64,000 nucleotides of DNA from Candidatus Omnitrophota bacterium (GCA_041650295.1 JBAZLM010000002.1:118911-182910), one strand, 5' to 3'; positions 8,121 to 33,610 are shown, counted from the stretch's first letter. The notes: generated by a model from the letters alone, not told the origin. Made by a program: numbers and translations.

Positions 8121-9056
8121 ATGAAGATAAAAAATACAGAGATTAAAGTGGTAATGGGCGATATTACTCAACAGCGTGCGGATGTTTTAGTGAATGCTGC
8201 CAATAATAAATTAGTGATGGGCGGGGGAGTAGCAGGAGCAATAAAAAGAAATGGCGGCCAAGTTATTGAGGAGGAGGCGGTAAAAAGGGGACCGATTGAA
8301 ATTGGGCAGGCTGTCGAAACTGGCGCTGGAAAATTAGCAGCAAAATATATAATTCATGCCGCAACTATGGGTATGGATTTTAAGACTGATGAAATTAAAA
8401 TTCGTAATGCTTGTAAGAGTGCTTTAGATTTAGCTAAAGAATTAAAAGTTAGTTCAATTGTTTTTCCGGCCCTAGGTTGTGGAACCGGAGGTTTTCCATT
8501 GTTAGCTTCGGCTAAGATCATGGGTCAGGAAGTATTGAAACATTTGCGCCAAGACCAAACTACTTTAAAAGAAATAATTTTTTGTGTGCAAGACCAGGAA
8601 GCGATTAATATTTTTAATAAAGGGATATTAAGTTATTTAGAGTATGTGACCACTAAGTTATCCGGTGGGCCCTACACGACTGTAGATGTAATTATTGAAT
8701 TGCCTGAAGGGATTGTGATCATCCAACGCAGTAATCCGCCTTTTGGTTGGGCGCTACCTGGTGGATTTGTGGATTATGGGGAAAGTTTAGAGGATGCGGT
8801 AGTGCGCGAAGCTAAAGAAGAGACGAATTTAGATTTGCTGGAAGTTAAACAATTTCATACTTATTCTGATCCTAGTCGCGATCTTAGATTTCATACGATT
8901 GGCACGGTATTTATTGCTCAAGCTAAAGGAGTGCCTTGCGCCGGAGATGATGCTGCAGATTTAAAGATTATTAAATTAAGCGAAATAAATAAGATGCAGT
9001 TTGCTTTTGATCATAAAAAGATTTTAGAGGATTATTTAAAAGCTAAAAACTCTTAG
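8121..9056 (+). CDS. Macro domain (ADP-ribose binding/processing) - NUDIX hydrolase fusion protein
   Basis: N-terminal '[36 protein letters not shown]' Macro signature. C-terminal '[24 protein letters not shown]' Nudix box. ATG at 8121 is preferred over TTG at 8103 because AGGAG at 8108-8112 gives an 8-nt spacer. Confidence 0.7.
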
Positions 9057-10933
9057 CCTTCCCGCAGTTGTTTTTCCGCATCAACAATATCGCGATTAAT
9101 TACCCGAATGGTTTCTTTGATCTTATCTTTTAATAGGTAGGAGGCAACCGGAGCTTGTGAAATCTCTCTTAAAACTTGCACACTCATTCTAAAATAGCGC
9201 ACTACTTCACCTTCGTCACAATCGGTCATCTGTAAGGTTGAGTCAAAATTTGTTCCGCGCAGCCAGGCTTCCATACTGGAGCACAGGTGAAAATAGGGGA
9301 GCTTGCTAAAAGGATGAATTTTATAGCGACGTTCTTTGTCTTTGACGCGGTCATAAGTTTCTTCGCATAATCTCTTTAATCTTTGTGTAGATTTAGAAAT
9401 TCCGCAAGGCATACGTTGATTTTTGCGAGGCTCAAAGACTACTGAAGCGGCCACTACCCCTAATCCAAATTCATCCAGTTGTTCCAAAGTATTATCGGCA
9501 TATAGCTCCGATAGAACCAATTCATAACCGTAAATTGTCTTACCAAATTTTCCTTTATCGGTAAGTTTTCCGTCGTGAATATAGCCGGTATCTTTGAGCA
9601 GTCTTAATTTTGCTTCTAATAAATTGAGTGCCTGCTTTTGTTCATTTTTGCGGGATTGGAAATAGTGTAAAGAGAGCGGATAAATTTTAAATAAATCTTC
9701 CTGATATTTTTCATAAAGGTTAAGAATGGTGGCGTATGATGTGTTTAGCTGGCTTCTGACCTCTTCGGGTTGACCGTAAATTATGCGACGCACTTCTTCA
9801 AAAGTCATTCTTTGTGTGTTCACGCGCGTGTAAACAAAACCCTCGTTATCAATGCCGCGTCGCCCGGCACGACCAGCCATCTGATAAAAATCGCGGGTTT
9901 TTAAATTTCTCACATAAGTACCATAAAATTTACGCAGGCCATCAAACATTACCGAACGACTCGGCATATTAATTCCTAAAGCAAAAGTTTCGGTAGTAAA
10001 AATAACTTTTAGTAATCGGCTGGTAAAAAGACGCTCAATTACTTCTTTGAGCGTGGGGAGCATCCCGGCATGATGATAAGCAATTCCACGTTGAACCAGA
10101 GGAAAGAGGAGTTGTGCCGATTGTTCATGAGTTAAATTAAATCTATTTAATAAATCTTCATACATTTGAGTGATTGCTCTGCTTTCTTTAGAGTCTAAAA
10201 ATTTAAAGCCATAAAGATCGTGGGCTAATTCTTCGGCGCGTTTGCGGGAAAAAACAAAATAGATTGCCGGTAAGCCTTCTTTTTCTTGGACGTAGCGAAT
10301 TAATGCGTGCAGACTGCTGGGTTTGCTAGAGCGAATACGCTTGAGATGTTCAATTTTATTGACAATTTCGTTTTGACATTGAAAAAGAAAATGTAAAGGC
10401 ACCGGGCGCTGGTTCTCAATAACTACTTTTACGGTCTTGTCGTGGATGGATTCAATCCATTTAGCAAATTGATCGATGTTGGGAATAGTGGCGGAAAGTC
10501 CCAATAGATTCATGTGTTTAGGTAAGAAGATCAGGGATTCTTCCCAGACGGTGCCGCGTTCAGGATTATCGATATAATGAATTTCGTCAAAGATAATCCA
10601 GGAGTATTTATCTAAACTTCTGGGTTCATCTAAAAGTTTGTTGCGAAAGATCTCGGTAGTCATAATTAAGACCGGAGCGTGCGGATTAATGGAAACATCC
10701 CCGGTAAGAATACCGATATTATCTTGAAATTGACCCTGAAAATCGCGAAATTTTTGATTGGAGAGGGCTTTGATGGGAGCGGTGTAAATTACTCCTAAAT
10801 TATTACGGATCGCTCCTTCAATAATATATTCAGCAATCGCAGTCTTTCCGGCTCCGGTGGGAGCTGAGACGATGACGGAGTGACCGGCATTGATATGGTC
10901 AATAGCTTCTTGTTGAAAACGGTCGTAAATCAT
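9053..10933 (-). CDS. Ski2/HelY-like DEAD/DEAH-box superfamily-2 helicase
   Basis: '[15 protein letters not shown]' Walker A. 'IFDEIHYI' DExH box. 'LGLSATIPN' motif III. '[11 protein letters not shown]' motif VI. C-terminal DSHCT-like region. This is the only gene on the minus strand. Confidence 0.7.
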
Positions 10934-13184: not shown

Positions 13185-13231
13185 ATTTTTTTACCTCTTT
13201 CGTCTATTGGTGTAGAAGGAGGTGATAAAAG

Positions 13232-13489
13232 ATGGATGATAGCATTATTAGCGTCAGCCGCATTTATAAGTTAGATACCGATTCTAAGCTTAAAGCTTTT
13301 GCGGATGTAACATTTTCGGGAGTAGTGATTAAAGGTTTTAGTGTAGTTGATGGTCAGAAGGGGTTATTTGTGAGTATGCCGCGTCATCAAGGTAAAGATG
13401 GTAAGTGGTATGACACTGTAACTACGCAGACCAAAGAGTTGAAACAGCAATTAGCAGAAGTTGTTTTAGAGGCCTATAAAGGCAGCTAA
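13232..13489 (+). CDS. spoVG: SpoVG family septation protein
   Basis: 85 aa. 'LKAFADVTFSGVVIKGFSVVDGQKGLFVSMP' matches SpoVG. RBS GGAGGTG upstream. Confidence 0.75.
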   Translation: MDDSIISVSRIYKLDTDSKLKAFADVTFSGVVIKGFSVVDGQKGLFVSMPRHQGKDGKWYDTVTTQTKELKQQLAEVVLEAYKGS

Positions 13490-13498
13490 ACAAATTAG

Positions 13499-13535
13499 GG
13501 GACGGTTCTTAAAAAGGACCGTCCCTATTATAAAA
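13499..13535 (+). terminator. Rho-independent terminator after spoVG
   Basis: GGGACGGT (13499-13506) / ACCGTCCC (13519-13526) form an 8-bp GC-rich stem with a 12-nt loop, followed by the T/A-rich 'TATTATAAAATA'. Confidence 0.5.
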
Positions 13536-13536
13536 T

Positions 13537-14043
13537 ATGAATATTTATTTAGTAGGGTTTATGGGTACAGGTAAAAGTACGGTTGGCCGTCTTTTGGCTC
13601 AAAAGCAGGGCTTAAATTTTCTTGACCTGGATGAGCTAATTGAGTTAAAAGAACAGCGCAGAATTGTGGATATCTTTGCTAAAGACGGTGAATTAGCTTT
13701 TAGAAAGATTGAGAAAAAAATGTTAAAACAGGTCTCTACGCAGAAGAAATTTGTAGTGGCTTGTGGCGGTGGTATTGTTTTAGATAAAGATAATATTAAA
13801 TTAATGAAGAAAACCGGAATTTTAATTTGTCTTTGTGCTAATTGCCATGAGATTTTAAAAAGAGTCTCATCCAGTACACATCGACCGATTTTAAATGTAG
13901 AAAAACCTAAAGAGCGCATTGAACTTTTATTAAAGATGCGCGCTCCGTATTATGCGCAGGCGGATAAATCGATAGATACTTCGGCTTTGTCGGTTAAGCA
14001 GGTAGTCACAAAAATTTCTAAAATACTTACTGCTAAAAAATGA
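13537..14043 (+). CDS. aroK: Shikimate kinase
   Basis: 'IYLVGFMGTGKSTVGRLLA' P-loop. 168 aa. Confidence 0.8.
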   Translation: MNIYLVGFMGTGKSTVGRLLAQKQGLNFLDLDELIELKEQRRIVDIFAKDGELAFRKIEKKMLKQVSTQKKFVVACGGGIVLDKDNIKLMKKTGILICLCANCHEILKRVSSSTHRPILNVEKPKERIELLLKMRAPYYAQADKSIDTSALSVKQVVTKISKILTAKK

Positions 14044-17151: not shown

Positions 17152-18021
17152 ATGGATAAATTTATTGAAAAGTTTGTCCGCTACCTTGAAATTGAGAAGA
17201 ATTATTCTCCTTATACAATTCTAAATTATAAATTAGATCTGGAAGGTTTTAATAAATTTATCGGCGAAGCAGATTTAGAAAAGATTGATTATTTAACTTT
17301 AAGAAAATATTTAGCGGTTTTAAAGGAAAAAAATTTAGGTAACCGTACGGTGGGCCGCCGTCTTTCTTCATTGCGTAGTTTTTTTAAGTTTTTAACGCGG
17401 GAAAGCTATATTAAGACCAATCCGATGTTGATGCTTTCTAGCCCAAAGTTAGAAAAACATCTGCCGTCTTTTATGACTGAGGATGAGGTTTACAAATTAA
17501 TCGAGTCGTCTTTTGCTAAAGATAAAGACGATCTTTTAGGCTTGCGGGACCGAGCAATTTTAGAATCATTTTATTCTAGCGGTTTACGTATTTCGGAGCT
17601 AGTAGGATTAAATTTGGATGATGTTGATTTTATTAGTGGTATTCTTAAGATTAGAGGAAAAGGAAAAAAAGAGAGAATTGTGCCGATGGGAGAGACTGCG
17701 CTTTTAGCTATCCGTAAATATTTAGATAAACGTAAAAAACAATCCAACGTGGTTTTTTTAAATAACAATAGCCAACGCTTAACTACCCGCGGCGTGCGTT
17801 TTGTTTTAGTTAAATACTTAAAGGCCGCAGGTATTAAACCGGGAGTCTCGGCACATACCTTTCGACATTCTTTTGCTACGCATCTTTTAAATCGCGGAGC
17901 TGACCTGCGTACAGTGCAAGAGCTTTTGGGCCATGCTAATTTATCGACTACCCAGATTTATACGCATTTAACTACTGAAAAATTAAAAAGCGTTTACGAT
18001 AAAGCACATCCACATGCTTAA
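17152..18021 (+). CDS. Tyrosine recombinase XerC/XerD family
   Basis: 'RDRAILESFYSSGLRISELVGL' and 'HTFRHSFATHLLNRGADLRTVQELLGH...TQIYTH' catalytic R-H-R-Y pattern. Confidence 0.75.
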   Translation: MDKFIEKFVRYLEIEKNYSPYTILNYKLDLEGFNKFIGEADLEKIDYLTLRKYLAVLKEKNLGNRTVGRRLSSLRSFFKFLTRESYIKTNPMLMLSSPKLEKHLPSFMTEDEVYKLIESSFAKDKDDLLGLRDRAILESFYSSGLRISELVGLNLDDVDFISGILKIRGKGKKERIVPMGETALLAIRKYLDKRKKQSNVVFLNNNSQRLTTRGVRFVLVKYLKAAGIKPGVSAHTFRHSFATHLLNRGADLRTVQELLGHANLSTTQIYTHLTTEKLKSVYDKAHPHA

Positions 18022-19311: not shown

Positions 19312-19771
19312 AATTTATATGACTCAAGAAGGTTATGAAAAATTAGTGAATGAATTGGAAAATTTAAAGACGGTTAAGCGGCGCGCACTTTCTAAGGCAG
19401 TCGGGGAAGCCAGAAGCCAAGGTGATATTAGTGAAAATGCCGAGTATGATGCGGCCAGGGATGCTCAGGCACATAATGAAAAACGCATTATGGAGTTAGA
19501 AAATAAATTAGCCCAAGTGCGTATTTTAGATAAAAATATCCCTAAGGACGAAGTGTTAATTGGGGCAACGGTAAAATTAAAAGATATGGATACAGATGAA
19601 GAGCTGGAGTACACCTTAGTTTCGGAGCTTGAGAGCGATTATAGTCAAAATAAAATTTCGGTTAATTCTCCGGTTGGTCAAGGGTTATTGGGCCATAAAG
19701 AAAATGAAGTCGCCCAGATAAAAATTCCTGCTGGAATTCTAAAATATAAGATTATTAAAATATCGCGTTAA
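19301..19771 (+). CDS. greA: Transcription elongation factor GreA
   Basis: 'MTQEGYEKLVNELENLK...RRALSKAVGEARSQGDISENAEYDAAR' is the GreA coiled-coil signature. Confidence 0.8.
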   Translation: MSGEIYMTQEGYEKLVNELENLKTVKRRALSKAVGEARSQGDISENAEYDAARDAQAHNEKRIMELENKLAQVRILDKNIPKDEVLIGATVKLKDMDTDEELEYTLVSELESDYSQNKISVNSPVGQGLLGHKENEVAQIKIPAGILKYKIIKISR

Positions 19772-20540: not shown

Positions 20541-20541
20541 A

Positions 20542-20706
20542 ATGTTGGATAAAATTGGTCATTTAAAAGTTGAAATATTTAAAATCAAAAATCGATCAGG
20601 GTTTGCCGCCATTTGTTGTGAGCACCTGACTGAAGGCAAGAATCCTCAAGAGGCTTATGAACGGATGGTTAAAGCTTTGCGACGGAGTAATCGTAAAAAT
20701 ATTTAA
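20542..20706 (+). CDS. Small hypothetical protein, 54 aa (possible HicB-like fold)
   Basis: ATG 20542 lies 2 nt after the upstream stop. Translation 'MLDKIGHLKVEIFKIKNRSGFAAICCEHLTEGKNPQEAYERMVKALRRSNRKNI'. Too short for the ORF track. Weak resemblance to the HicB/UPF0150 'G(F/Y)xAxCxE...GxT.EEA...EA' pattern. Confidence 0.25.
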   Translation: MLDKIGHLKVEIFKIKNRSGFAAICCEHLTEGKNPQEAYERMVKALRRSNRKNI

Positions 20707-20715
20707 TTTATAACT

Positions 20716-22550: not shown

Positions 22551-23273
22551 ATGTTAGAGATAAAAGCTCGACAATTAGGGGGTGTAGTGGTTTTAGATTT
22601 AGCTGGTCGTATTGACGTGGATTCTGCTAATCTAATTGAAGTGGTCGGACAATGCCTACGCGATGGATATTTAGATATTCTTTGTAATTTAGAAGATGTT
22701 GAAATGATCGATTATATGGGAGTGTCGGTAGTGGTGATTGCCTATAAAGAGGTAATTAATCATAATGGTAGAATAAAATTTTCTAATGTCCCAGTACATT
22801 TGCGCGGTGTATTTACTATCTCTGGCACAGACAGGGTGATGGAGATTTATGCTACTCAAGATTTAGCACTAAATAGTTTTAAAGAAGATAAGATTATTGA
22901 AAAAATTAAGAAGATGCAGCTGCGTCGCAGATTTAAGCGTCTACCAGTTGATTTAAAAGTTGAATTGAAATTTAAAACTCAGAGTTCACCGCATTGTTTA
23001 AAAGCAGAGGTAGTTAATTTAAGTGCGATTGGGGCATTTATCTTCGGTTGTAATAATTTTAAATTAGGTGATGAAGTGATACTTAAAATGAAGCTGGCGC
23101 CAAAGCAGGAAGAGCTGGAACTTGCTGCGCAGGTAGTTTGGGTGCCCGATAAACTAGTTCAGCTGCATGAATATCCGGGAATTGGCGTGGAATTTATTAA
23201 TATCTCATCTGTAAATCAGCATAAATTGATCGAATTCATCGATCGCAATCTTTCCCTTAGAACTTCGGATTAA
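22551..23273 (+). CDS. STAS-domain (anti-sigma-factor-antagonist-like) - PilZ-domain fusion protein
   Basis: N-terminal 'GVVVLDLAGRIDVDSANLIEVVGQ...IDYMGVSVVVIAYKEV' STAS fold. C-terminal 'RRRFKRLPVDLKVELKF...VVNLSAIGAFI...GIGVEFINIS' PilZ c-di-GMP-binding signature (RxxxR ... D/NxSxxG). Confidence 0.6.
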   Translation: MLEIKARQLGGVVVLDLAGRIDVDSANLIEVVGQCLRDGYLDILCNLEDVEMIDYMGVSVVVIAYKEVINHNGRIKFSNVPVHLRGVFTISGTDRVMEIYATQDLALNSFKEDKIIEKIKKMQLRRRFKRLPVDLKVELKFKTQSSPHCLKAEVVNLSAIGAFIFGCNNFKLGDEVILKMKLAPKQEELELAAQVVWVPDKLVQLHEYPGIGVEFINISSVNQHKLIEFIDRNLSLRTSD

Positions 23274-23287
23274 TTTAGTAAAAGCTG

Positions 23288-23510
23288 ACGCGGGTCCTGC
23301 CTTGTCTTGGTTCTCGCGGGAGCGCTTGTTGCGGCCTAGCGTGCCGCAACTACGCTCGGGTCGGCTGCGTCGCTCTGCCAAGACAAATCTAAGAGGCAAC
23401 CGTGCCCGCCCCGTTGTAAACCAAATCCTTTGAAAATTATAGTTTGCAACGGGGCCCGCTCCTTGCCTCCACGTCCCGCTCGAATCCAAGACAAGTCACC
23501 CGCTAATAGC
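23288..23510. repeat. GC-rich structured repeat, copy 1 (223 bp, includes a 52-nt hairpin insertion)
   Basis: Nearly identical to 33126-33296. 5' 'CCTTGTCTTGG...TCGCGGGAGCG' is complementary to 3' 'CGCTCC...TCCCGCTCGAATCCAAGACAAG'. Internal GTTGCGGC/GCCGCAAC hairpin. Local GC is far above the genome background. Confidence 0.7.
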
Positions 23511-23517
23511 TTAAATT

Positions 23518-23773
23518 AAATAATCCTGTTGGTTTTCGAGTGAGTGTCGATTTTAGCAAAAGCAGCTTGAGTAGCCAAGGTATCCCCGTGGAGTTCGCCA
23601 ACGGTTTAATGGCGAACGACAAAACGGGGACGGCGAAGCTGTTCGAGTAGTTTTTGTTAGAACAAAAACTACGAGTTCTGCAGCCGCTTGGCTACGAAAG
23701 ATCTTTTGCGTCCGCCTGTACTTTGTTGTCGTGGCGGAAATCGACCCGAACGAGAAAAACAACAGGATTATTT
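23518..23773. repeat. 256-bp element bounded by about 35-bp imperfect terminal inverted repeats (MITE-like, or a long-hairpin ncRNA)
   Basis: Left end 'AATAATCCTGTTGGTTTTCGAGTGAGTGTCGATTT'. Reverse complement of the right end 'AATAATCCTGTTGTTTTTCTCGTTCGGGTCGATTT'. Interior folds into nested hairpins (GTTCGCCA/TGGCGAAC, TAGTTTTTGTT/AACAAAAACTA, GCCAAGG/CCGCTTGGC). Confidence 0.55.
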
Positions 23774-23897
23774 CAATGTCTATATCTTGTTGTCGGACTT
23801 AAGTTTTAGGAGGGAAATCATTTGCTCGCAGGGCTTGCGTATGTTATCATAATTATTCATAAATGTTTAATTAATAGAGAGATTTGAGCTTAAAATT

Positions 23898-24959
23898 ATG
23901 TCTTCTGTCCGTGAATATCTTTATAATTTAGTGACTGGTAAGATCAGTGGACCGGTGGCAGTGTTTTTACGTGCTTGCCTGTGGGTGCTCTCACTGGTTT
24001 ATGGTTTAGGGGTTACTATTTTGGCCAATTTTTACCGTGCAAAGGCCAAGCGTTTTAAGGCCAAAGTAATTAGCGTGGGCAATATTACTTTAGGGGGTAC
24101 GGGTAAAACTACTTTAGTGGAATATTTAAGTAGTAAAATAACTTCAGCTGGTCATAAAGTTGCGGTGTTAAGTCGAGGCTATAAGCGTGATACTCGTCGT
24201 CTGGGCACTCAAAGCTTAGGTGATGAGCCTACGATGCTAGTCAAGAATTTGCCGTTAGTAAAAGTGGTAGTGAATAAAAATAGGATTAAAGGAGCGCAAA
24301 CCGCGATTGATGGTTATGCTGCGGATACTTTGATTATTGATGATGGCTTGCAACAATGGAAGATCGCTAAAGACTTAGAGATCGTGACTATTGATGCGGC
24401 TAATCCTTTTGGAAATGGTCGCTTGCTTCCAGCAGGATTTTTACGTGAGCCACTAAGTGCTTTAAAGCGGGCGGATGTTTTTGTTTTGACTCAAGTTAGG
24501 CCAGAGCAGGATATCGTTGAGCTTTACGCCAGATTAAGAGGAATAAATTCTCGAGCTTTAATTGTGGAGTCTATTCATAAAATGGATGGGTTTAATAGTT
24601 TGAGTACTCCGAATGAAACCTTAGATTTAAATTCTTTTAAAAGTAAGATTGCGGTAGTTTTTTCTGGTATTGGTAACCCAGAAGGATTTGAAAAAAATAT
24701 TCAGGACTTAGGAATTCATGTTGCAAAATCGTTTAGGTTTATCGATCACCATGATTATCTGCAGGCGGATATCGATAAAATTATAAAAATGGCCCGTTTG
24801 ATGCAGGCAGATACAATTATTACCACACAAAAAGATGCGGTAAAGATTAGGGAGTTAGAAATTAAAGGTGCACAGATTGTTTGGTTGAATATAAAACTGA
24901 GTATTACTCACAATGAAACAGAATTTAATCGCCGATTACTTAAGTTGTATTCTCTTTAG
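23898..24959 (+). CDS. lpxK: Tetraacyldisaccharide 4'-kinase
   Basis: 'VISVGNITLGGTGKTTLVEYL' P-loop. C-terminal 'DHHDY...TTQKDAVKI'. Confidence 0.8.
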   Translation: MSSVREYLYNLVTGKISGPVAVFLRACLWVLSLVYGLGVTILANFYRAKAKRFKAKVISVGNITLGGTGKTTLVEYLSSKITSAGHKVAVLSRGYKRDTRRLGTQSLGDEPTMLVKNLPLVKVVVNKNRIKGAQTAIDGYAADTLIIDDGLQQWKIAKDLEIVTIDAANPFGNGRLLPAGFLREPLSALKRADVFVLTQVRPEQDIVELYARLRGINSRALIVESIHKMDGFNSLSTPNETLDLNSFKSKIAVVFSGIGNPEGFEKNIQDLGIHVAKSFRFIDHHDYLQADIDKIIKMARLMQADTIITTQKDAVKIRELEIKGAQIVWLNIKLSITHNETEFNRRLLKLYSL

Positions 24960-26832
24960 AGGTTTAAGTTTTTTTACTTATTTTTTACCTCTGGATGTTA
25001 GCCTTTTTTTGGGTCGCAGGCTAGGAGATCTGGTCTATCTTTTTGATCGTAAGCATCGCTTAATTGCTAATGCTAATATTAGAAAGACGGTCGCTAATAA
25101 TTTTGATCTTTCATCTAGCAAAAAGATTACGCGTAAAGCTTATCAGGCGTTTGGTCAAAATATTGTAGAGATTTCGCTTATCCCGCGGATTAATCAAGCC
25201 TATCTAAAAAAATATATTCAATTTGAAAATCAACATTATAAAGATGAAGCCTTTAAGCGGGGTAAAGGAGTAATCTTTTTGATTGTGCACGAGGGTAACT
25301 GGGAGCTTTCCAATATTATCTGTGCGAATTTAGGTTTTCCTTTTGTCTTGTTTATTCGTGATCAAGGTTTTCCCAGATTAAATGCATTATTAAACTCCTA
25401 TCGGCTTAAACAGGGATCTAAGATTATTCATAAAACAGCCGGGGTACGTCAGTTAATTGAAACTTTAAAAGCAAATCAAGGAATTGGCATGACCGTAGAC
25501 CAAGGCGGTAAAGCTGGAGAGATTGTTAAATTTTTTGGCAAAGATGCCTCGATGTCGACTGGCGCAGTAAAGATGGCTTTAAAATACGACTGTGCAATTA
25601 TTCCGATCTTTTATACCCGAATTAATGGCCCACATACCAAAGTAATTTTAGATCAGGTTTTTACGGTTACTAGAAGTGATGACCCGCAAAAGGACTTAAA
25701 AAATAATTTACAGAGATTGATCAATCTTTATGAAAAGTATCTGCGTCAATATCCGCATGAATATTTGTGGACTTATAAAATTTGGAAGTATGGATTAGAA
25801 AGAGAAATTTTGATTTTGTCTGATGGTAAGACCGGACACCTACGTCAATCTGAAGGCTTAGCTAAGTTGATGATTGAGCAATTAGCTAAGCGTAAGATAA
25901 AAACTAATTTATCGGTGGTAGAGATAAAATTTCGCTCGTCGGTTTTTAGATTTATTTTTAATTATTTATCGTTGGCTAAATTGCGTTGTTTGCGTTTTGC
26001 TTTAACTAAAGAAAGCTGGGAGAGGGTAGTTAATTTAAAACCAGATTTTATTATCTCTACCGGTAGCGCAATTAGCGGGGTAAATTACTGCTTGGCTAAA
26101 GAAAATCAAGCTAAGTCGGTGGTGTTGATGCGACCAGCGAAATTTAAGAAATTTGATTTAGTCGTTATCCCTGAACATGATCGGCCGATAAAGGCAAAAA
26201 ATGTGGTGATTACTCAAGGAGCGCTTAATTTAATTGACCTTAATTATTTAAATCAAAGTTCAAAGAGATTAGAGCAATCTGGTTTATTAAAAGCTCCACT
26301 GTCTAATCTTTGCATTGGAATATTGATTGGTGGCAATAGCAAAAAATTTAATATCTCTGTTGATGATATAAAAGAGTTGTCTAGGCGAATTAAGAAATCT
26401 GCACAAAGTTTAAATGCGGATATTTTAATTTCTACTTCTCGGCGTACCTCTTCGCTAGTAGAGCAGGTGATCAAAGAGGAATTTATTAATTATCCTAATT
26501 GTAAATTGCTAGTTGTGGCTAATGAAAATAATAATCCTGATGTTGTAGGGGGAATTTTAGGATTAAGTAATATTGTGATTTGTTCGCCGGAAAGTATTTC
26601 AATGATCTCTGAAGCAGTGGCCGCAGAAAAGTATGTGCTTGTTTATCGGGCCAAAGGCCTAAGCCAGAAACATCAGAAATTTTTAAACCGCTATCATAAG
26701 CAGGGATATATATATTTAAAAGAAATTAATGAGTTAACCGGAGCAATTGAGCAGATCTGGTTACAGCAACCTAAGATTAATTCACCTAAGGATAATCTAA
26801 AAGTAAGTGATGCATTAAATAAAATACTATGA
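24913..26832 (+). CDS. Lipid A lauroyl/myristoyl acyltransferase (LpxL/HtrB family) fused to a C-terminal Elm1/DUF1022-like (GT-B-like) domain
   Basis: N-terminal about 290 aa. 'GKGVIFLIVHEGNWEL' is the HX4E-variant acyltransferase motif and 'YPHEYLWTYK' matches LpxL. C-terminal about 340 aa starts 'ILILSDGKTGHLRQSEGLAKLM', resembling Elm1-like proteins. Confidence 0.6.
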   Translation: MKQNLIADYLSCILFRGLSFFTYFLPLDVSLFLGRRLGDLVYLFDRKHRLIANANIRKTVANNFDLSSSKKITRKAYQAFGQNIVEISLIPRINQAYLKKYIQFENQHYKDEAFKRGKGVIFLIVHEGNWELSNIICANLGFPFVLFIRDQGFPRLNALLNSYRLKQGSKIIHKTAGVRQLIETLKANQGIGMTVDQGGKAGEIVKFFGKDASMSTGAVKMALKYDCAIIPIFYTRINGPHTKVILDQVFTVTRSDDPQKDLKNNLQRLINLYEKYLRQYPHEYLWTYKIWKYGLEREILILSDGKTGHLRQSEGLAKLMIEQLAKRKIKTNLSVVEIKFRSSVFRFIFNYLSLAKLRCLRFALTKESWERVVNLKPDFIISTGSAISGVNYCLAKENQAKSVVLMRPAKFKKFDLVVIPEHDRPIKAKNVVITQGALNLIDLNYLNQSSKRLEQSGLLKAPLSNLCIGILIGGNSKKFNISVDDIKELSRRIKKSAQSLNADILISTSRRTSSLVEQVIKEEFINYPNCKLLVVANENNNPDVVGGILGLSNIVICSPESISMISEAVAAEKYVLVYRAKGLSQKHQKFLNRYHKQGYIYLKEINELTGAIEQIWLQQPKINSPKDNLKVSDALNKIL

Positions 26833-26906
26833 ACCCCGTTACATCTCTAATTTGTGATTTTAGAGATTTAAGGGGTTAGGAATAAAAAAGGAGATGTAAC
26901 GGGGTG
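26832..26906 (+). promoter_or_regulatory. Candidate RBS/start-codon-sequestering RNA switch in the leader of the GT4-GT9 gene
   Basis: CCCCGTTACATCTC (26834-26847) is the perfect 14-nt complement of GAGATGTAACGGGG (26891-26904), which contains part of the SD (AAGGAG 26887-26892) and the G of GTG start 26904. Mutually exclusive alternative: AACCCC (26832-37)/GGGGTT (26872-77) closing the hairpin ATCTCTAA/TTAGAGAT (26844-26868). Confidence 0.4.
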
Positions 26907-28997
26907 AAAATATTACAAATATTACCGGAGCTAAATGTTGGCGGAGTAGAAACTGGAACACTAGATCTTTCGAAATATCTGGTGCGTTTGGGGCATAAAT
27001 CGGTGGTGGTTTCTGCCGGGGGATCATTGGTTAAAGAGTTAGAGGCCAGTGGGGCAAAGCATTATACGCTACCGGTAAATAAAAAATCAATAATTTCTAT
27101 TTATAAATTAATTCCGGTATTAGCCCAGATAATTAAGCAAGAAGAGATTGATATTGTGCATGCTCGTTCTAGGGTTCCGGCTTGGATTGCTTTTTTTGCC
27201 TGCCGCAGAACCAAAGCTATCTTTATTACTACTTGTCACGGTTATTATAAAAAACATTTATTTAGTTCAGTAATGGGCTGGGGCAAAAGAGTAATTGTTT
27301 TAAGCAATGTGATTGCTCGGCACATGATTGAAGATTTTTTTGTACCGCATGAACGAATTAACTTGGTGCCGCGCAGTGTAGATTTAGAAAGATTTAAATA
27401 CTCTGATCCGCAAGTTAAAAGAAAAGATGTTTTTAACGTGGGAATTATCGGTAGGATTACTCCTTTAAAGGGACACTTGCATTTTATTAAAGCGATGGCG
27501 CGTATCTCTAGATTAGTGCCGCGGCTAAAGATTTGGATTGTCGGGGATGCTCCGGCTTCAAAAGAAGCATATAAAGAAGAGGTACAAGTTTTAGTGCGCA
27601 GGTTAGGACTTTGGCATTGTACCGAATTTTTAGGTACGCAACGCGATATTCCGGGAATATTAGCGCATTTGGATTTGGTAGTTTTGGCCACGACTACGCA
27701 TGAAGCATTTGGTAGAGTGGTGGTAGAAGCGATGGCCTCAGGGGTACCGGTGGTAGCCACCAGAGTCGGTGGGGTAGTAGATATTATTGAGGACGGTAAG
27801 GACGGATTTTTAGTACCTCCTGCGGATGCTAAAAGTATGGCCGAGGCAATCATGCGTATTTTTAATGATGCGCAATTAGCTAAAGATATGGCGCTGGCTG
27901 CGTATGAAAAAGTTAAATTAAAATATAATGTAGAGTTGATGGTTAAGAATACTTTGGATGTCTACCGACAGGCTTTGAGTAATTTTAAAATTTTAATTAT
28001 TAAATTTAGTTCTTTAGGGGACATTATTCTTTCTACTGCTGCATTAAGAGCAATTCGAGAAAAGTTTAATAAAGAGAATTTTAAATTAAGTTTTTTAGTG
28101 CAAGAAGAATCAAAGGAGTTGCTTCTTAGAAGTCCTTATATTGATGAGTTGTTAGTTTGTGATTTGAAAAATCGCGATAAAGGTTGGATGGGCTTATGGG
28201 TGATGGGCAAAATTTTAAGAAATAAAGGTTTTGATATTGTTATTGATCTACAGAATAATCGGGCTAGTCATATTTTATCTTATCTGAGCGGTTGTATTAA
28301 TCGTTACGGATACAGTAATAAAAAATTTGATTTTTTACTTAATCATACGATTGTGGATGATAAGCCTCCGATTGATCCAGTTACTCATCAATTCCGTATT
28401 TTAAAGTTGCTGGGGGTGGATCTCTTAGATAATCGACTTGAACTTTGGCCTTCGATTGAAGATGAAAAATTGGTGGATGAGCTTTTAAATGCGCAGTGGA
28501 TTAGCCAGATGCAAAAAATTGTGGGAATTAATATTAGTGCTTCTAAAAGATGGGCCACTAAACGTTGGCCTTTAGAATACTTGACTTGTCTTTGTCAGGA
28601 GTTAGAGCTAAAAGATATTCGGGTAGTCATTACCGGTACCGCTGATGATTTGGATTTTGCCAATGCTTTGGTTAGTTCATTAAAAAATACGAAGATCATT
28701 AATGCTTGTGGAAAAACTTCGATTAATGAGTTAGCAATTTTAATTAAAAAATGTCATGTTTTTATTTCGGCTGATTCCTCACCTTTACATATTGCCTCAG
28801 CCGTAGGGACACCATTTGTGGCATTATTTGGTCCAACTGATCAGCGTCGACATCTACCTCCTGGTAAAAATTGTATTGTGATTAATAAAAATTTAAATTG
28901 TAGCCCTTGTTATAAAACCAAATGTCGTTCTAAGCGCTGCATGATTGAGATTAATCCGGCAGAGGTTTTAGAGGCAGTGCATAAATTACTTAAATGA
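26904..28997 (+). CDS. Fused GT4 glycosyltransferase (N) / GT9 ADP-heptose:LPS heptosyltransferase (C)
   Basis: GTG start with AGGAG RBS. N-terminal 'MKILQILPELNVGGVETGTLDL...EAFGRVVVEAMASGVPVVAT' GT4. C-terminal 'ILIIKFSSLGDIILSTAALRAIREKF...ADSSPLHIASAVGTPFVALFGPTD' GT9. 697 aa. Confidence 0.7.
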   Translation: MKILQILPELNVGGVETGTLDLSKYLVRLGHKSVVVSAGGSLVKELEASGAKHYTLPVNKKSIISIYKLIPVLAQIIKQEEIDIVHARSRVPAWIAFFACRRTKAIFITTCHGYYKKHLFSSVMGWGKRVIVLSNVIARHMIEDFFVPHERINLVPRSVDLERFKYSDPQVKRKDVFNVGIIGRITPLKGHLHFIKAMARISRLVPRLKIWIVGDAPASKEAYKEEVQVLVRRLGLWHCTEFLGTQRDIPGILAHLDLVVLATTTHEAFGRVVVEAMASGVPVVATRVGGVVDIIEDGKDGFLVPPADAKSMAEAIMRIFNDAQLAKDMALAAYEKVKLKYNVELMVKNTLDVYRQALSNFKILIIKFSSLGDIILSTAALRAIREKFNKENFKLSFLVQEESKELLLRSPYIDELLVCDLKNRDKGWMGLWVMGKILRNKGFDIVIDLQNNRASHILSYLSGCINRYGYSNKKFDFLLNHTIVDDKPPIDPVTHQFRILKLLGVDLLDNRLELWPSIEDEKLVDELLNAQWISQMQKIVGINISASKRWATKRWPLEYLTCLCQELELKDIRVVITGTADDLDFANALVSSLKNTKIINACGKTSINELAILIKKCHVFISADSSPLHIASAVGTPFVALFGPTDQRRHLPPGKNCIVINKNLNCSPCYKTKCRSKRCMIEINPAEVLEAVHKLLK

Positions 28998-30082
28998 GAA
29001 TACTATTTATTGCCAATCATTTAAATGTCGGAGGGATAACTAGTTATTTGCTTACTCTGACCAGTGGATTAAAGGAAAAAGGCTACGACATTTATTTAGC
29101 TTCTAGTGGCGGAGAATGGGCGGATAAATTTAGTGTTTTAGGTATAAAGCATATTTATTTGCCTTTAAAAACCAAGCAAGCAGTTAGTCCTAATATTATT
29201 TTTAGTTTCTTTAGATTAAAAAAAGAGATTAAAAATTTAAAGATCGATTTAATTCATACTCATAGTCGTACGACTCAAGTCTTGGGAGATCTCTTAAGTC
29301 GGACTTTAGGTGTAGTGCATATTTTTACCTGCCACGGTTTTTTTAAGCCAAAATTATCGCGTCGATTATTTCCTTGTTGGGGTAAGGGGGTTATTGCGAT
29401 TAGTCAGGAAGTTAAGGAGCATTTAATTAACGATCTTAAGTTAGATGCTAAAAAGATTGCAGTGATTAATAATGGTATCGATGTAAAAAAGTTTGGCGAT
29501 GCTGGTACAAGAAACTTAGTGCGTAAGAATTTAAAAATAGAAAGTAATGATTTTTTAGTAGGAATTATCGCTCGTTTATCCGACGTTAAAGGACATCTTT
29601 ATCTTATTCAGGCGATGCAGAAAGTTATGCAGAGTTTTTCTAATGTTAAATTGTTAATTGTTGGTCAGGGTAAGATGCAGGATTTTTTAGTTAGGGAAGT
29701 TGATTCGTTAGGAATTAAATCTAATGTAATATTTCTAGCTAAGGCAGATAATACTCAAGATCTGCTTTCGGCGATGGATGTTTTTGTGATGCCGTCTTTG
29801 CAGGAAGGTTTAGGGTTAGCGTTAATGGAAGCGATGGCAGGAGGCTTGGCGGTAGTTGGTTCGGCAGTAGGGGGAATAAAAACTTTAATTCAGGATAAAG
29901 CAAACGGTTTGTTAGTTGCTGCTACGGATGTTTCAGGATTAGTTAAAGCGATTACGCAGTTACTGGATAATCCTCAAATGCGCGCCGAACTAGGAAAAAA
30001 TGCCCAGAAGTTTATTATCGATAATTTTTCTAAAACCAAGATGGTCAATCAAACTGAGGAATTTTATAAACTCCATGGCTAA
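28994..30082 (+). CDS. Glycosyltransferase family 4 (GT4)
   Basis: 'MRILFIANHLNVGGITSY...' and 'EGLGLALMEAMAGGLAVVGSAVGG' (E-x7-E motif region). Confidence 0.7.
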   Translation: MRILFIANHLNVGGITSYLLTLTSGLKEKGYDIYLASSGGEWADKFSVLGIKHIYLPLKTKQAVSPNIIFSFFRLKKEIKNLKIDLIHTHSRTTQVLGDLLSRTLGVVHIFTCHGFFKPKLSRRLFPCWGKGVIAISQEVKEHLINDLKLDAKKIAVINNGIDVKKFGDAGTRNLVRKNLKIESNDFLVGIIARLSDVKGHLYLIQAMQKVMQSFSNVKLLIVGQGKMQDFLVREVDSLGIKSNVIFLAKADNTQDLLSAMDVFVMPSLQEGLGLALMEAMAGGLAVVGSAVGGIKTLIQDKANGLLVAATDVSGLVKAITQLLDNPQMRAELGKNAQKFIIDNFSKTKMVNQTEEFYKLHG

Positions 30083-31112
30083 GGATTCTGCTTTAGAAAG
30101 TATCTTAATTTTTAATGTTAATTGGCTAGGAGATGTTTTGTTCTCTACTGCCACAATTAGAAATATTCGGCGTAATTATCCAAAGAGTTTTTTGGCTTGT
30201 GTGATTCCTAGTCGCTGTTATCCGATTTTAAAAGATAATCCTTATCTGGATGAAGTGATTATCTTTGATGAGAAAGATAGACACAAAGGAGTGATAGCCA
30301 AACTAAAGTTTGTTAATTTACTCAAGAGTAAAGGATTTGATACAGCATTTATTTTGCACCGTTCTTTTAGTCGCGCGTTAATCTGTCGATTAGCAGGGAT
30401 AAAAAATAGAATTGGTCATTATACTAAGAAGCGCGCTTTTTTACTTACCAAGAGCATTGTTCCTCCGCAAAAAGATTCATTACATCGCATAGATTATTAT
30501 TTGGATGTAATCGAAAAAGCGGGATTACGAGTCGAGGACCGGTATTTAGATTTTTTCTATTCAGTTGATGATGAAAAGCAAGTAGGTGATTTTTTAATTC
30601 AGAATTCGGTTGATTCAAATAATTTTGTAGTGGCGCTTAATCCCGGAGGTAATTGGATACCTAAGCGTTGGCCTAAAGAGTATTGGGCACTTTTGGCGGA
30701 TCGTTTAATTAAAGAGGTAAAAGCAAAAGTGATTATTACCGGAAGTGCTGCGGATTTGGTATTGGTCAATCAGATTAAAGATGCGATGCAAGAGGTGCCG
30801 TTGGTGGCCTGCGGAGTTTTTAATATAAAACAGTTAGGGGCCTTAGCTAAAAGAGCGGATTTATTTATTACTGCTGATACCGGACCGTTACATATTGCCA
30901 ATGCAGTAGGGGCAAAAAAAATAATTGCAATCTTTGGTCCCACTGCTCAAGGTATTACTGGTCCGTATCCAGCTAATAATGCCGTTATTTTACAAAAAGA
31001 TATCGGATGTCTGGTTCCTTGTTATAAAGTGCATTGTCAGGATAACCGTTGCATGAAAGCAATTACCCCCGAAGATGTTTTAAATGCAGTACATAAGATT
31101 AAACAATCATGA
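30075..31112 (+). CDS. GT9 ADP-heptose:LPS heptosyltransferase (RfaF/WaaC family)
   Basis: Preferred start is ATG 30075 ('MAKDSALESILIFNVNWLGDVLFSTATIRNI'), overlapping the upstream stop. 'TADTGPLHIANAVGAKKIIAIFGPT' GT9 C-terminal motif. Confidence 0.7.
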   Translation: MAKDSALESILIFNVNWLGDVLFSTATIRNIRRNYPKSFLACVIPSRCYPILKDNPYLDEVIIFDEKDRHKGVIAKLKFVNLLKSKGFDTAFILHRSFSRALICRLAGIKNRIGHYTKKRAFLLTKSIVPPQKDSLHRIDYYLDVIEKAGLRVEDRYLDFFYSVDDEKQVGDFLIQNSVDSNNFVVALNPGGNWIPKRWPKEYWALLADRLIKEVKAKVIITGSAADLVLVNQIKDAMQEVPLVACGVFNIKQLGALAKRADLFITADTGPLHIANAVGAKKIIAIFGPTAQGITGPYPANNAVILQKDIGCLVPCYKVHCQDNRCMKAITPEDVLNAVHKIKQS

Positions 31113-33118
31113 AAATACTTTTTATCACTTTAAGTAATATCGGTGACTGTATTCTTACTTTGCCGGTTTTAGATGCGTTGCATGAAAAATATCCGCAGGC
31201 AAAAGTTACTTGTTTAGTCCCCCCGCGGCCCAAAGAGATATTTCTTAACAACCCCATTGTAGAAAAAGTAATTATTTTTGATAAACAGAGTAAATTAATT
31301 GAAAAAATTAAACTATTTTTTTCTTTGCATAAAGAAAAATTTGATCTAGTGGTGGATTTGCGTAATAGTTTTTTTGGAGCATTTTTGTCAGCTAAAAAAA
31401 GGAGTTCTCCGCTAAGGATGATTCCTCGTCAGATCAAACATATGAGAGAGCGGCATTTATTTTGGGCCAATCTTTCTAACTCTTTAATAGCGTCTAAAGC
31501 TAAGTCATTAAATATAACTTTGCAAGATAATCAGTACATCGATAGTATTTTAAAAGATGAAAATTTAAATAATGATAATTTGATTGTGATTTCTCCTGGC
31601 TCAAGAAGTCAAACTAAATGCTGGGACAAGCAAAATTTTAGTCAACTATGTAGTCAACTTATTCAAGATGGCTACGCCGTAGTTTTAGTCGGAGATAAAG
31701 GAGATTTGCCGGTATGTGCATATTTGCAGAATGCGGTAGTGGGAATACATAATTTTTGTGCAAAGACAACTATCGGTCAATTGGCGGCTTTATTAAAAAG
31801 GGTAAAAATTTTGGTGACTAATGATAGTGCGATAATGCATTTGGCCAGCTATTTAAATATTCCAGTGGTTGCGATATTTGGTCCGACAGATGAATTTAAA
31901 TATGGTCCTTGGTCAGAACAAAGCACAGTAGTAAAAAAAGATGTTTTTTGTCGGCCTTGTCAGAAAGCGGTTTGTCGTTTTAATGCTTTGACTTGCTTGG
32001 CTTGCATAAAACCAAGGGATGTGCTTAATCAAATTAAGTTAATTTTAACGAATAATTATAAAAAAAATTACATTCAAGAACAATCGCAGCATCGAATTTT
32101 AATTAGTCGCACGGATCGCCTAGGTGATGTAGTTCTGTCAACTCCGGTGGTCAAAGCTTTAAGAGAAAAATTCCCCCAGGCATATATCGCTATGATGGTT
32201 GCTCCTTGTGCTAGAGATGTTGTTGATGGTAATCCTTATCTGGATGAAGTGATTATTTATGATAAAGATGGCAAGCATAAGAGCTGGTTACGCACTTTAA
32301 AGTTTGCTAATAACTTAGCGAAAAGAAAATTTGATTTAGCTATTATTTTGCATCCGACAAATCGAGTGCATTTATTAATTTCTTTAGCCAGGATTCCACA
32401 GCGTCTAGGTTATAATCGTAAACTTGGTTTTTTACTTAATTGTCGTAAACTACATTTAAAACAAGAAGGTATTCGTCATGAAGCAGAATATAATTTAGAT
32501 TTAATTTCCGATTTAGGGGTTACGGGAAGTGCGCAGGATTTATTTATGCCGCTTAAACAAGAGTCAGAGCGTTACGTTTCAGAATTATTGAGTCAGGCAG
32601 GTTTTACACAAAAAGATAAAATTTTAGCGATTAATCCTGGGGCAAGCTGTCCTTCTAAAGTTTGGTCAACCCAGCGTTTTGCTCAAGTTTGTGAAAAGTT
32701 AGTGAGTTTATATAATTTTAAAATACTTATTTTAGGTGGGCCTAAAGAGATGCAGCTGGCAAATAAAATCGAAGTAGAGTATAAGGGGAGCGCAAAGATT
32801 TTAAATTTAGTGGGCAAGACTTCGGTGAGTCAATTAGCGAGTTTACTTAAACGTTGTACTTTATTTATCTCTAATGATTCTGGTCCAGTGCACATTGCTT
32901 CGGCATTAGGAACCCCGGTGATTTCGATCTTTGGGCGCAATCAGCCGGGGCTTAGTCCCAAACGTTGGGGTCCTTTGGGAAAGCGCGATAAATATTTACA
33001 TAAAGATATTGGATGTATGCAATGTTTGGCGCATAACTGCACAAAAGAATTTGCCTGCCTTAAAGCGATCACCGTCGAGGATGTAGTCTCTGCTGCAGAA
33101 TCAATTTTAAAAATTTAA
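31109..33118 (+). CDS. Tandem double GT9 heptosyltransferase (two complete GT9 modules in one 669-aa polypeptide)
   Basis: Module 1 'MKILFITLSNIGDCILTLPVLDALHEKYP ... NDSAIMHLASYLNIPVVAIFGPTD'. Module 2 'RILISRTDRLGDVVLSTPVVKALREKFPQ ... NDSGPVHIASALGTPVISIFG'. Confidence 0.7.
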   Translation: MKILFITLSNIGDCILTLPVLDALHEKYPQAKVTCLVPPRPKEIFLNNPIVEKVIIFDKQSKLIEKIKLFFSLHKEKFDLVVDLRNSFFGAFLSAKKRSSPLRMIPRQIKHMRERHLFWANLSNSLIASKAKSLNITLQDNQYIDSILKDENLNNDNLIVISPGSRSQTKCWDKQNFSQLCSQLIQDGYAVVLVGDKGDLPVCAYLQNAVVGIHNFCAKTTIGQLAALLKRVKILVTNDSAIMHLASYLNIPVVAIFGPTDEFKYGPWSEQSTVVKKDVFCRPCQKAVCRFNALTCLACIKPRDVLNQIKLILTNNYKKNYIQEQSQHRILISRTDRLGDVVLSTPVVKALREKFPQAYIAMMVAPCARDVVDGNPYLDEVIIYDKDGKHKSWLRTLKFANNLAKRKFDLAIILHPTNRVHLLISLARIPQRLGYNRKLGFLLNCRKLHLKQEGIRHEAEYNLDLISDLGVTGSAQDLFMPLKQESERYVSELLSQAGFTQKDKILAINPGASCPSKVWSTQRFAQVCEKLVSLYNFKILILGGPKEMQLANKIEVEYKGSAKILNLVGKTSVSQLASLLKRCTLFISNDSGPVHIASALGTPVISIFGRNQPGLSPKRWGPLGKRDKYLHKDIGCMQCLAHNCTKEFACLKAITVEDVVSAAESILKI

Positions 33119-33125
33119 CAATTTT

Positions 33126-33296
33126 ACGCGGTTGCCTTGTCTTGGTTCTCGCGGGAGCGCTTGTTGCGGCCCAGCGTGCCGCAACTACGCTCGGGTCGGC
33201 TGCGTCGCTCTGCCAAGACAAATCTAAGGGGCATCCGTGCCCGCTCCTTGCCTCCACGTCCCGCTCGAATCCAAGACAAGTCACCCGCTAACAGCT
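33126..33296. repeat. GC-rich structured repeat, copy 2 (171 bp, lacks the 52-nt insertion)
   Basis: Direct repeat of 23288-23510, same orientation. Begins 8 nt after the stop of the GT9-GT9 gene. Confidence 0.7.
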
Positions 33297-33474
33297 TTCT
33301 GGCTTTTGCTGGAGGCGCGTTCAAAGTTTTCGGCTGGCTAACTTTTCGTTAGTGTGCAAGGAATTACGTCGAGTGAAGGCGGTGTCCATCTAGCGTAAGG
33401 TATAAGCCGTAACGAGACGTAAGCCGCAGCACACGGCGAAAACTTTGAGCGCCGGAAGCAAAAGACGGAAAGCT
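33293..33474. repeat. About 180-bp long imperfect hairpin element (candidate structured ncRNA or MITE-like element)
   Basis: Arms 'GCTTTTGCTGGAGGCGCGTTCAAAGTTTTCGGC' (33302-33334) and 'CGGCGAAAACTTTGAGCGCCGGAAGCAAAAG' (33435-33465) are near-complementary. Outer AGCTTTC/GAAAGCT pairing. Inner GTGTGC...GCACAC and TTACGTC/GACGTAA stems. Confidence 0.5.
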
Positions 33475-33610
33475 TAAACAGGACCCGCGTAAATGTAACA
33501 TAAATATCTGTTTGATTTCAGAGCAAATTATGCTAAAATCATTAAGCTTTGCGGTTAAATATTGATAGCTTAATGTCCTGAGCGCAGCGAAGGATCTTCC
33601 AATAAATCAT

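Follow-up and report, generated by a model that had tools for sequence, protein, structure and literature searches.

The window analysed here, a 64-kb stretch of Candidatus Omnitrophota DNA (positions 118916-182915 of the 186-kb ENA contig ERZ27247363:k141_279864), contains a lipopolysaccharide (LPS) core-oligosaccharide block in which genes for LpxK, LpxL-Elm1, GT4-GT9, GT4, GT9 and GT9-GT9 (GT, glycosyltransferase), confirmed with Pfam, lie between two copies of a repeat. The Omnitrophota are uncultured, mostly ultra-small bacteria with compact genomes. The 60-odd genes of the window are separated by tiny junctions or overlap, and all are on the + strand except a DEAD/DSHCT helicase gene (9053-10933). 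The window has only two long non-coding gaps, 624 and 492 nt, and both hold G+C-rich elements of 170-260 nt, referred to below as A, B1 and B2, which we consider to be probable mobile repeats of three new, structured families. The features at the two gaps are as follows.

22551-23273, + strand: STAS-PilZ gene; its stop codon lies 15 nt 5′ of element A copy 1
23288-23512, + strand: element A copy 1, a foldback with imperfect terminal inverted repeats (TIRs; ACGCGGGTCCTGCCTTGTCTTGG / CCAAGACAAGTCACCCGCT) and a multi-helix core; an nhmmer member of the A family
23410-23459, + strand: extra segment inside A copy 1, 50 nt, consisting of a 44-nt hairpin (CCCGTTGTAAAC...GTTTGCAACGGG) and a second GCCCGC
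23518-23773, + strand: element B1, with a long closing stem of 36-nt arms (83% complementary) and a three-way junction
31109-33118, + strand: GT9-GT9 fusion gene, the last gene of the LPS block; its stop codon lies 7 nt 5′ of element A copy 2
33126-33297, + strand: element A copy 2, which lacks the nested insert and is nearest to the family consensus
33293-33476, + strand: element B2, which forms a long imperfect hairpin; its internal motif CAAGGAATTACG...CGTAAGCCGCAG is conserved; fold z-score -5.1
33478-33493, + strand: inverted fragment of the A 5′ terminus, CAGGACCCGCGTAAA, which closes the A-B2 composite
33512-33539, + strand: sigma-70-like promoter of the DS-like/pfkB operon (TTGATT-16-TGCTAAAAT), just 3′ of the elements

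A first-pass annotation had described two near-identical, G+C-rich direct copies at these places, each starting within 15 nt of the preceding stop codon and followed by a different hairpin, with the LPS genes named above between them, and this description is borne out in all its parts. The A copies align in two segments, both on the same strand: 23298-23412 corresponds to 33133-33247 (115 nt, 97% identity) and 23454-23512 to 33239-33297 (59 nt, 98% identity). Each copy begins with ACGCGG, at the distances from the STAS-PilZ and GT9-GT9 stop codons given above, and the hairpins that follow are B1 and B2, respectively. The window holds these two A copies and no more. The G+C content of the elements is 52-61%, compared with ~37% for the window, and the fold z-scores of the two A copies are -4.1 and -7.2. 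The 50-nt insert of copy 1 splits the conserved GAACCGTGCCCGCTCC block and has a 6-nt duplication at its flanks; it was not found in copy 2, in any homolog or at any other locus.

The ends of A are retained even where its interior is not. In mini-A derivatives (in L017, L095 and L011; L numbers denote individual sequences retrieved for comparison), the retained termini TTA(C/G)GCGGGTCCTG...GTCACCCGCTA enclose short cores that are unrelated, and mini-A and A share TA-flanked termini of the form GCGGGTCCTG...GTCACCCGC. The 10-mer of the A terminus has seven exact matches in 1.36 Mb, every one of them in an element-bearing gap. As judged by eye, TA stands to the left of 12 of 17 and to the right of 11 of 14 A-type copies, in AT-rich flanks in which TA...TA is self-complementary and with no alignable pair of filled and empty sites. 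TA at both ends has also been reported for ERIC-type elements (PMC3184786).

Element B1 has a fold z-score of -9.9 and, in the window, carries two additional, lineage-specific hairpins; its homologs are present in L019 (two copies), L017 and L076. B2 is bounded by the TIRs AAGCTTTCCGGCTTTTGC / GCAAAAGACGGAAAGCTT. Just 3′ of B2, positions 33478-33489 (CAGGACCCGCGT) are the exact reverse complement of the 5′ end of A copy 1 (23289-23300). The A-B2 composite therefore has a terminal inverted repeat of its own, TTTACGCGG...CCGCGTAAA. The 10-mer of this inverted A terminus is also found in element-bearing gaps of L017, L018, L036, L053 and L095. Where A (or mini-A) and a B element are adjacent, A is 5′ of B on the same strand in nine of nine cases, four of which are inverted relative to the genes.

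The structure of A was curated by hand as five helices, and its covariation was assessed in 12 sequences. Twenty-five of the 44 base pairs have changed on both sides, i.e., in a compensatory manner, and 87% of the cells are paired compared with 33-45% after sliding the partners by one to three columns; none of 500 shuffles reached the observed values. Hairpin P3 is wholly rewritten between genomes (GTTGCGGC, GTTTTGCC, GCCCCGCC and GCATTTCC, each with its complement), and the loop above the rewritten stem is conserved (7 nt, CC(C/T)(A/T)GCGT). The long-range helix P5, in which the strand 5′ of TCGCTCT pairs with the strand 3′ of GCCCGCTC, is backed by four versions: CAAAAATT/AATTTTTG, AGCCCC/GGGGCT, GGCGC/GCGCC and GTCGGC/GCCGAC. 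In B2, 10 of the 17 predicted pairs, located around the internal motif, covary, while in B1 this applies to 30 of 70 pairs in only five sequences. The high G+C content to which the first-pass annotation had drawn attention does accompany structure. As to the strand that folds, the reverse strand is better in 12 of 12 A copies and the forward strand in 11 of 12 B2 copies, a preference that tracks G-versus-C content; minimum free energy and wobble pairs point to no consistent folding strand across the elements.

Relatives were surveyed by collecting lpxK with 10-kb flanks from 80 Omnitrophota metagenome-assembled genomes (MAGs), which were searched with blastn and iterated nhmmer profiles. The profiles yielded 14 matches to A (13 elements, window copy 1 being split by its insert), six to B1 (five elements, since L002 duplicates the window copy) and 12 B2 family members. 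A census of gaps based on open reading frames (ORFs) proved unreliable given spurious ORFs within the G+C-rich elements. The A elements of relatives are 67-83% identical to the window copies, in genomes whose LpxK proteins are 43-67% identical, and copies within one genome are 97% alike, whereas comparison with the same gap in other genomes gives 67-83%. In relatives, roughly every second copy runs antisense to the genes around it.

The gene order is kept in all sampled relatives (LpxK identity 39%-75%), and it runs waaA-greA-...-STAS/PilZ-lpxK-lpxL/Elm1-GT4/GT9-GT4-GT9-GT9/GT9-DS-like-pfkB irrespective of whether repeats are present. Differences are minor: some relatives have an extra gene between GT4 and GT9, and in the most distant ones waaA directly precedes lpxK. 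No relative was found in which the LPS block is missing or replaced, and neither recombinase core-site features within the repeats nor an integrase or recombinase gene beside them were detected. The LPS core-oligosaccharide block is thus a stable, vertically inherited operon and not a mobile module. The proposal of the first-pass annotation that it forms a swappable cassette is not borne out, as the order of the block is constant and only the spacers vary.

The variation of the spacers is considerable. The gap between STAS/PilZ and lpxK is as short as 40 nt in L047 and 125 nt in L025 and exceeds 800 nt at the other extreme; it contains A and B1 in the window, an inverted A-B2 in L012, B1(-) and B2(+) in L019, B2 alone in L010 and L031, and B1(-) in L017. 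The gaps of ~1 kb upstream of lpxK in L015 and L020 were considered as candidate elements and rejected, as they hold two extra genes (a HAD-like gene and one for a 90-aa membrane protein); in L026, L028 and L033, where the gap has the same size as in L015/L020, the same two genes are assumed. The gene for the 90-aa UPF0016/GDT1-like membrane protein is directly 5′ of lpxK in most relatives (e.g., L013 8084-8443), and the HAD-like phosphatase gene is also 5′ of lpxK in some (e.g., L015 8955-9996). The window has neither gene; A and B1 are present instead, and ~100 nt of weak similarity are left (23774-23897).

At the other end of the block, the gap between GT9-GT9 and the DS-like gene is empty (104-108 nt) in L012, L015 and L028, and is occupied by A and/or B in the window, L016(-), L018(-), L019, L036, L048, L060 and L071. 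The DS-like/pfkB promoter (TTGATT-N16/17-TGCTAAAAT; with an extended -10, TTGATTT-N17-TGCTAAAAT) is kept in L012, L015, L016, L019, L028, L036 and L071, always 3′ of the elements, and its conservation marks the start of the next transcription unit. A resemblance to the GT9-GT9 C-terminus in the flank of the inverted copy of L016 was traced to the DS-like promoter read backwards and was discarded. In L020, the same gap (19543-19742) carries an unrelated long hairpin repeat, one arm of which is G-rich (gagtagtgggataggtagtgcgggtgag...) and the other C-rich, which indicates that this gap collects several kinds of palindromic element.

Copies of A are not restricted to the LPS genes. A third copy, 97% identical, is located on a second contig (L090, 153 kb) of the ENA sample from which the window derives; L090 is identical to its JGI homolog L009 over the 500 nt tested. 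In L009/L090, A is followed by the first 34 nt of B1 and then by B2, upstream of trxA, and in L090 A starts 5 nt past the stop codon of a BNR-repeat gene. The ~112 kb of the window's assembly that were sampled therefore contain no fewer than three A clusters, one each at the lpxK, DS-like and trxA loci; neither the 10 kb that precede the window nor the remainder of L098/L090 has a further A. In a different JGI metagenome, A is beside gatCA at the end of a contig (L004). Among relatives, the trxA gap contains only a terminator hairpin (L096/L097), B2(+) (L091), B2(-) with a 75-nt mini-A (L095), or A with the B1 arm and B2 (L090). Moreover, inverted A copies in L047 flank a 1.3-kb segment with a lipoprotein gene and an AbiGi-family gene, i.e., accessory or defence-type genes. 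The insert concerned, 1.75 kb long (L047 1757-3526), is situated between the aroK/Zn-ribbon genes and dprA, which in the window overlap as aroK and dprA at 14040-14043, and its order is A(+), small lipoprotein gene, terminator-like hairpin, AbiGi-family gene, A(-).

An association of A with a large serine recombinase island at the trxA locus was considered and rejected. A is chromosomal and outside the island, because the 77-aa ORF that ends 5 nt before A is the C-terminus of the BNR-repeat gene. The island, 14.5 kb in size, resides inside this gene (L098 11417-21416 and L090 1-8950; ERZ27247363:k141_1439332, ~54950-69200) and splits it into a 471-aa N-terminal part at the left junction and the 77-aa C-terminal ORF; in L091, L095 and L096 the BNR-repeat gene is intact and free of the island. 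It encodes a UvrD-like helicase, DUF2290, MauJ, an N6/N4 methyltransferase with a CfrBI-type restriction enzyme, and SpoVG, with the large serine recombinase at its right edge.

Searches of other collections gave few matches. An exact 20-mer of A had no match in 185,579 GTDB species genomes. In JGI metagenomes it had seven; L004 and L009 proved to be true homologs, and the other five (L003 and L005-L008) were rejected as chance matches inside coding DNA. Three conserved A/B2 patterns had no match in IMG/VR viral contigs, and neither plasmids, searched by blastn with both composites, nor phages, searched with the A-B2 composite, contained anything similar. With Rfam 15, the whole window gave no family match at gathering score, and at E<=5 the two gaps gave chance matches only, e.g., mir-986 with 23 bits compared with a gathering score of 70, consistent with the statement in the first-pass annotation that no named family could be recognised. 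ARAGORN predicted no transfer RNA or transfer-messenger RNA genes in the window. Our literature search on repeats, RNA motifs or non-coding RNAs of Omnitrophota found nothing relevant. As far as sampled, A, B1 and B2 are confined to one Candidatus Omnitrophota clade.

Collectively, these data lead us to favor, with moderate confidence, a model in which A, B1 and B2 each represent a new family of intergenic repeats that are structured and mosaic and probably mobile and non-autonomous. By analogy, they may be of the same kind as miniature inverted-repeat transposable elements (MITEs), BOX, ERIC and Correia elements. In this model, A would have been gained, lost and flipped at orthologous gaps among relatives. 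In compact, co-directional genomes, almost the only landing sites to be tolerated would be short inter-operon spacers, and this scarcity of sites would cause the elements to accumulate downstream of an operon's final stop codon and ahead of the promoter that starts the following operon. The LPS block would then be bracketed because both ends of the LPS-core operon are such spacers, i.e., as a by-product of operon structure that involves no cassette. Spreading may have occurred by transposition with the enzyme acting in trans, by ectopic gene conversion, or by both. Transcripts of the upstream operon would run into sense copies and carry them as 3′ tails, whose stable fold might serve as a barrier to 3′-exonucleases or as an insulator rather than as a classical terminator.

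Similarities can be seen to MITEs such as Correia/CREE of Neisseria, ERIC/IRU of Enterobacteriaceae, Nezha and RUP. The elements are non-coding, intergenic and 75-260 nt long, bacterial MITEs being listed at 104-435 bp (PMC3184786), and they have TIRs, TA at both ends and stable hairpins. Copies are dispersed in unrelated contexts, and their presence varies among relatives, with empty and filled states at three orthologous gaps. Derivatives with internal insertions or deletions exist, and co-transcription with neighbouring genes is probable. In contrast to these MITEs, with which they share no sequence similarity, A, B1 and B2 have multi-helix junctions, conserved loops and deep covariation instead of simple hairpins; no cognate transposase is known for them, and a target-site duplication would merge with the extension of the stem.

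The boxA, boxB and boxC subunits of BOX join in a fixed order, and their ends can pair. BOX elements are modular, intergenic, non-autonomous, RNA-structured repeats of Streptococcus pneumoniae (PMC3184786). The elements described here resemble them in having distinct modules in fixed order, pairable ends, an intergenic location, a non-autonomous nature and structure at the RNA level. They differ in phylum and sequence, in that the modules are 3-5x longer and each also exists alone, and in that there are no tandem boxB-like arrays. REPs are palindromes of 20-40 bp with an unpaired GTAG or CGTC tag and are associated with RAYT (PMC3733652). Like REP, BIME and REPIN elements, A, B1 and B2 are G+C-rich extragenic palindromes that form mosaics 3′ of genes where the adjoining ORFs are co-directional, and their transcription is plausible (PMC3733652). 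Their size of 170-260 nt and the lack of an unpaired tag set them apart from the REP/BIME class; there is no GTAG tag, the CGTC of some copies sits within the paired terminus (GCGTCTG), and no RAYT gene was seen.

Other classes fit less well. With Rfam RNA families the elements share size, G+C enrichment in an AT-rich genome, a multi-helix architecture and compensatory covariation as in riboswitches and ribozymes, but no family is matched at gathering score. They do not have the makeup of intrinsic terminators, for the closing stems are not followed by a T-run, and in both orientations the flanks show a T-run 5′ and an A-run 3′. Retron msr/msd regions do not apply either, the neighbours being STAS-PilZ/lpxK and GT9-GT9/DS-like with no reverse transcriptase gene. 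Gene cassettes (integron attC, dif modules, composite transposons) are at variance with the synteny of the block in all relatives and the lack of an adjacent recombinase. Among the Pfam-annotated neighbours in the window, no reverse transcriptase, integron integrase or transposase is beside the elements.

Several observations weigh against an interpretation as mobile repeats. A occupies the same GT9GT9-to-DS-like gap in seven genomes, and this shared occupancy could reflect long vertical retention instead of repeated insertion; likewise, the orientation flips at a site could have arisen by inversion between the arms and not by new insertion. The unpaired blocks of A (GGGTCGGCTGCGTCGCTCT, GAACCGTGCCCGCTCCTTGCC and the loop CCAGCGT) are nearly invariant in genomes with LpxK just 43-67% identical. 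Such invariant unpaired blocks, together with covarying internal helices, fit a functional RNA better than selfish DNA. Target-site duplication is indistinguishable from extension of the closing stem, TA...TA being self-complementary in AT-rich flanks. In the ~112 kb of the assembly and 1.3 Mb of relatives' loci, neither a transposase nor an autonomous element sharing these termini was seen, although no systematic search for transposases was made, and the sampling of relatives was biased to the lpxK and trxA neighbourhoods.

A further possibility, which we hold tentatively, is that A, and perhaps B1/B2, is a new class of structured element with sequence-specific activity (a protein-recruiting or catalytic RNA, or a folded single-stranded DNA) that copies itself into operon boundaries or insulates co-directional operons. 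In such a case, and with the same reserve, the conserved multi-helix core might be the functional part and the MITE-like behaviour secondary; if true, an uncultured phylum of ultra-small bacteria would have three RNA families of its own that have gone unrecognised. That the elements are instead three new functional structured RNA classes, i.e., cis-acting elements of 3′ or 5′ untranslated regions or independently transcribed small RNAs, kept by the host for a sequence-specific role such as protein binding, processing or catalysis, with their multiplicity due to paralogy and not to mobility, is the main alternative, which we regard as rather unlikely. The strong covariation in all three elements, the rewriting of P3 under a conserved loop, the four versions of P5, the near-invariant unpaired blocks and the occupancy of the same gap across deep divergence speak for it, as does the fact that all three A copies of the window's assembly are in sense orientation, 5-15 nt past a stop codon. 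Host-kept RNAs are nevertheless difficult to reconcile with the antisense orientation of about half of the relatives' copies and the absence of a conserved promoter or terminator flanking them, with close relatives that have no elements at the same sites, with mini-A, which drops the whole conserved core and keeps the termini only, with the insert of A copy 1, which breaks a conserved block, and with the ambiguity of the folding strand in A and B2. The first-pass annotation had proposed, as its second option, paralogous structured RNAs that regulate LPS genes. The covarying structure in A, B1 and B2 agrees with the structural part of that proposal. Specificity for LPS genes does not follow, given the copies at trxA, gatCA and AbiGi, the relatives without elements at the same gaps, and the presence of both orientations relative to the genes. 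Dispersal without association to LPS genes, which had been named as an outcome that would speak against the proposal, is observed in part: the elements are dispersed, and the LPS-flanking gaps are still recurrently occupied in many genomes.

Host selection could also have acted on boundary function alone, the elements being insulators, 3′-end stabilisers or U-less terminators that were spread between boundaries by ectopic recombination or gene conversion and not by transposition, a scenario we consider improbable. All examined copies are outside genes, and at the LPS and trxA gaps they stand 3′ of a stop codon and 5′ of the conserved promoter from which the next operon starts, in a genome that is almost wholly co-directional, in which read-through is hence a real issue. 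The trxA copy, in which A and the first 34 nt of B1 are fused to a resident B2, has the look of a patch copied from an A-B1 locus and not of a clean insertion, and the empty trxA site has an ordinary terminator hairpin instead. However, no T-run follows the stems in either orientation in a genome that does have ordinary intrinsic terminators (e.g., after spoVG), the conserved asymmetric cores would be irrelevant to mere hairpin function, and the corresponding boundaries are plain, short spacers in many relatives. Still less credit is given to the suggestion that the elements work as folded single-stranded DNA, e.g., where a mobile element with a single-stranded intermediate is primed or recombined, which appears very improbable. 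Pairing is conserved whatever the orientation to transcription, and the P3 loop reads TAGCGT in copy 1 (23336-23346) and in L071 (20070-20080), which we take to be the CS-6 motif of ssoA-type single-strand origins, a likeness that may be due to chance. Against this, no HUH, Rep or relaxase genes are nearby, there are no plasmid, phage or viral-contig matches, and the orientation is mixed within a conserved, presumably co-replicated region. Finally, the notion that recombination at the direct A copies renders the 9.8-kb LPS block excisable or exchangeable is largely refuted and hardly credible. Direct repeats of 97-98% identity do bracket the block, and homologous recombination between them could delete it; inverted copies flank accessory genes in L047. 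Yet synteny of the block and its flanks extends to every relative, irrespective of the repeats, no genome was found with the block replaced or missing, the repeats have no recombinase core-site features and no adjoining integrase, and the sole serine recombinase found sits in the unrelated island that splits the BNR gene. The XerC/D-like gene of the window (17152-18021) is conserved and 5 kb from the repeats.

As mobile repeats, A, B1 and B2 would extend to the Omnitrophota a kind of structured intergenic repeat that is known in bacteria and of which no description in this phylum was found. They make up nearly all of the long non-coding DNA of the sampled regions. They break short-read assemblies, with contigs ending inside A or B in three independent assemblies (L002, L004 and L092), mark operon boundaries and vary between close relatives. 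With this variation and their position at boundaries, they can serve as markers in MAG curation and in the typing of strains. Whether bacterial mosaic repeats act at the RNA level might well be tested on them, as their structures are unusually deeply conserved.

Some further features of the window deserve mention. The 352-nt gap at 13185-13536 is not an element gap; it contains a spoVG-like gene (~95 aa, below the 100-aa limit of the ORF list), kept in ~20 relatives, with a clean intrinsic terminator (GGGGACGGTTCTTAAAAAGGACCGTCCC) directly 3′ of it. Similarly, the gap at 20541-20715 corresponds to a conserved small ORF without an element. The fusions LpxL-Elm1 (24913-26832), GT4-GT9 (26904-28997) and GT9-GT9 (31109-33118) are fused throughout the sampled Omnitrophota clade; in L011 and L015, LpxL-Elm1 appears as two neighbouring tblastn pieces, which in L015 overlap by 2 nt in different frames. 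GC skew is positive throughout the window (1-64000, about +0.2 to +0.3). Together with the + strand orientation of all genes but one, this suggests that the whole 64 kb is co-oriented, probably with the direction of replication as well. A 729-aa ORF at 5920-8109, with no Pfam match on record, is located where the excess of T over A is very strong (AT skew -0.37 at 6001-7000), unlike in the rest of the window.

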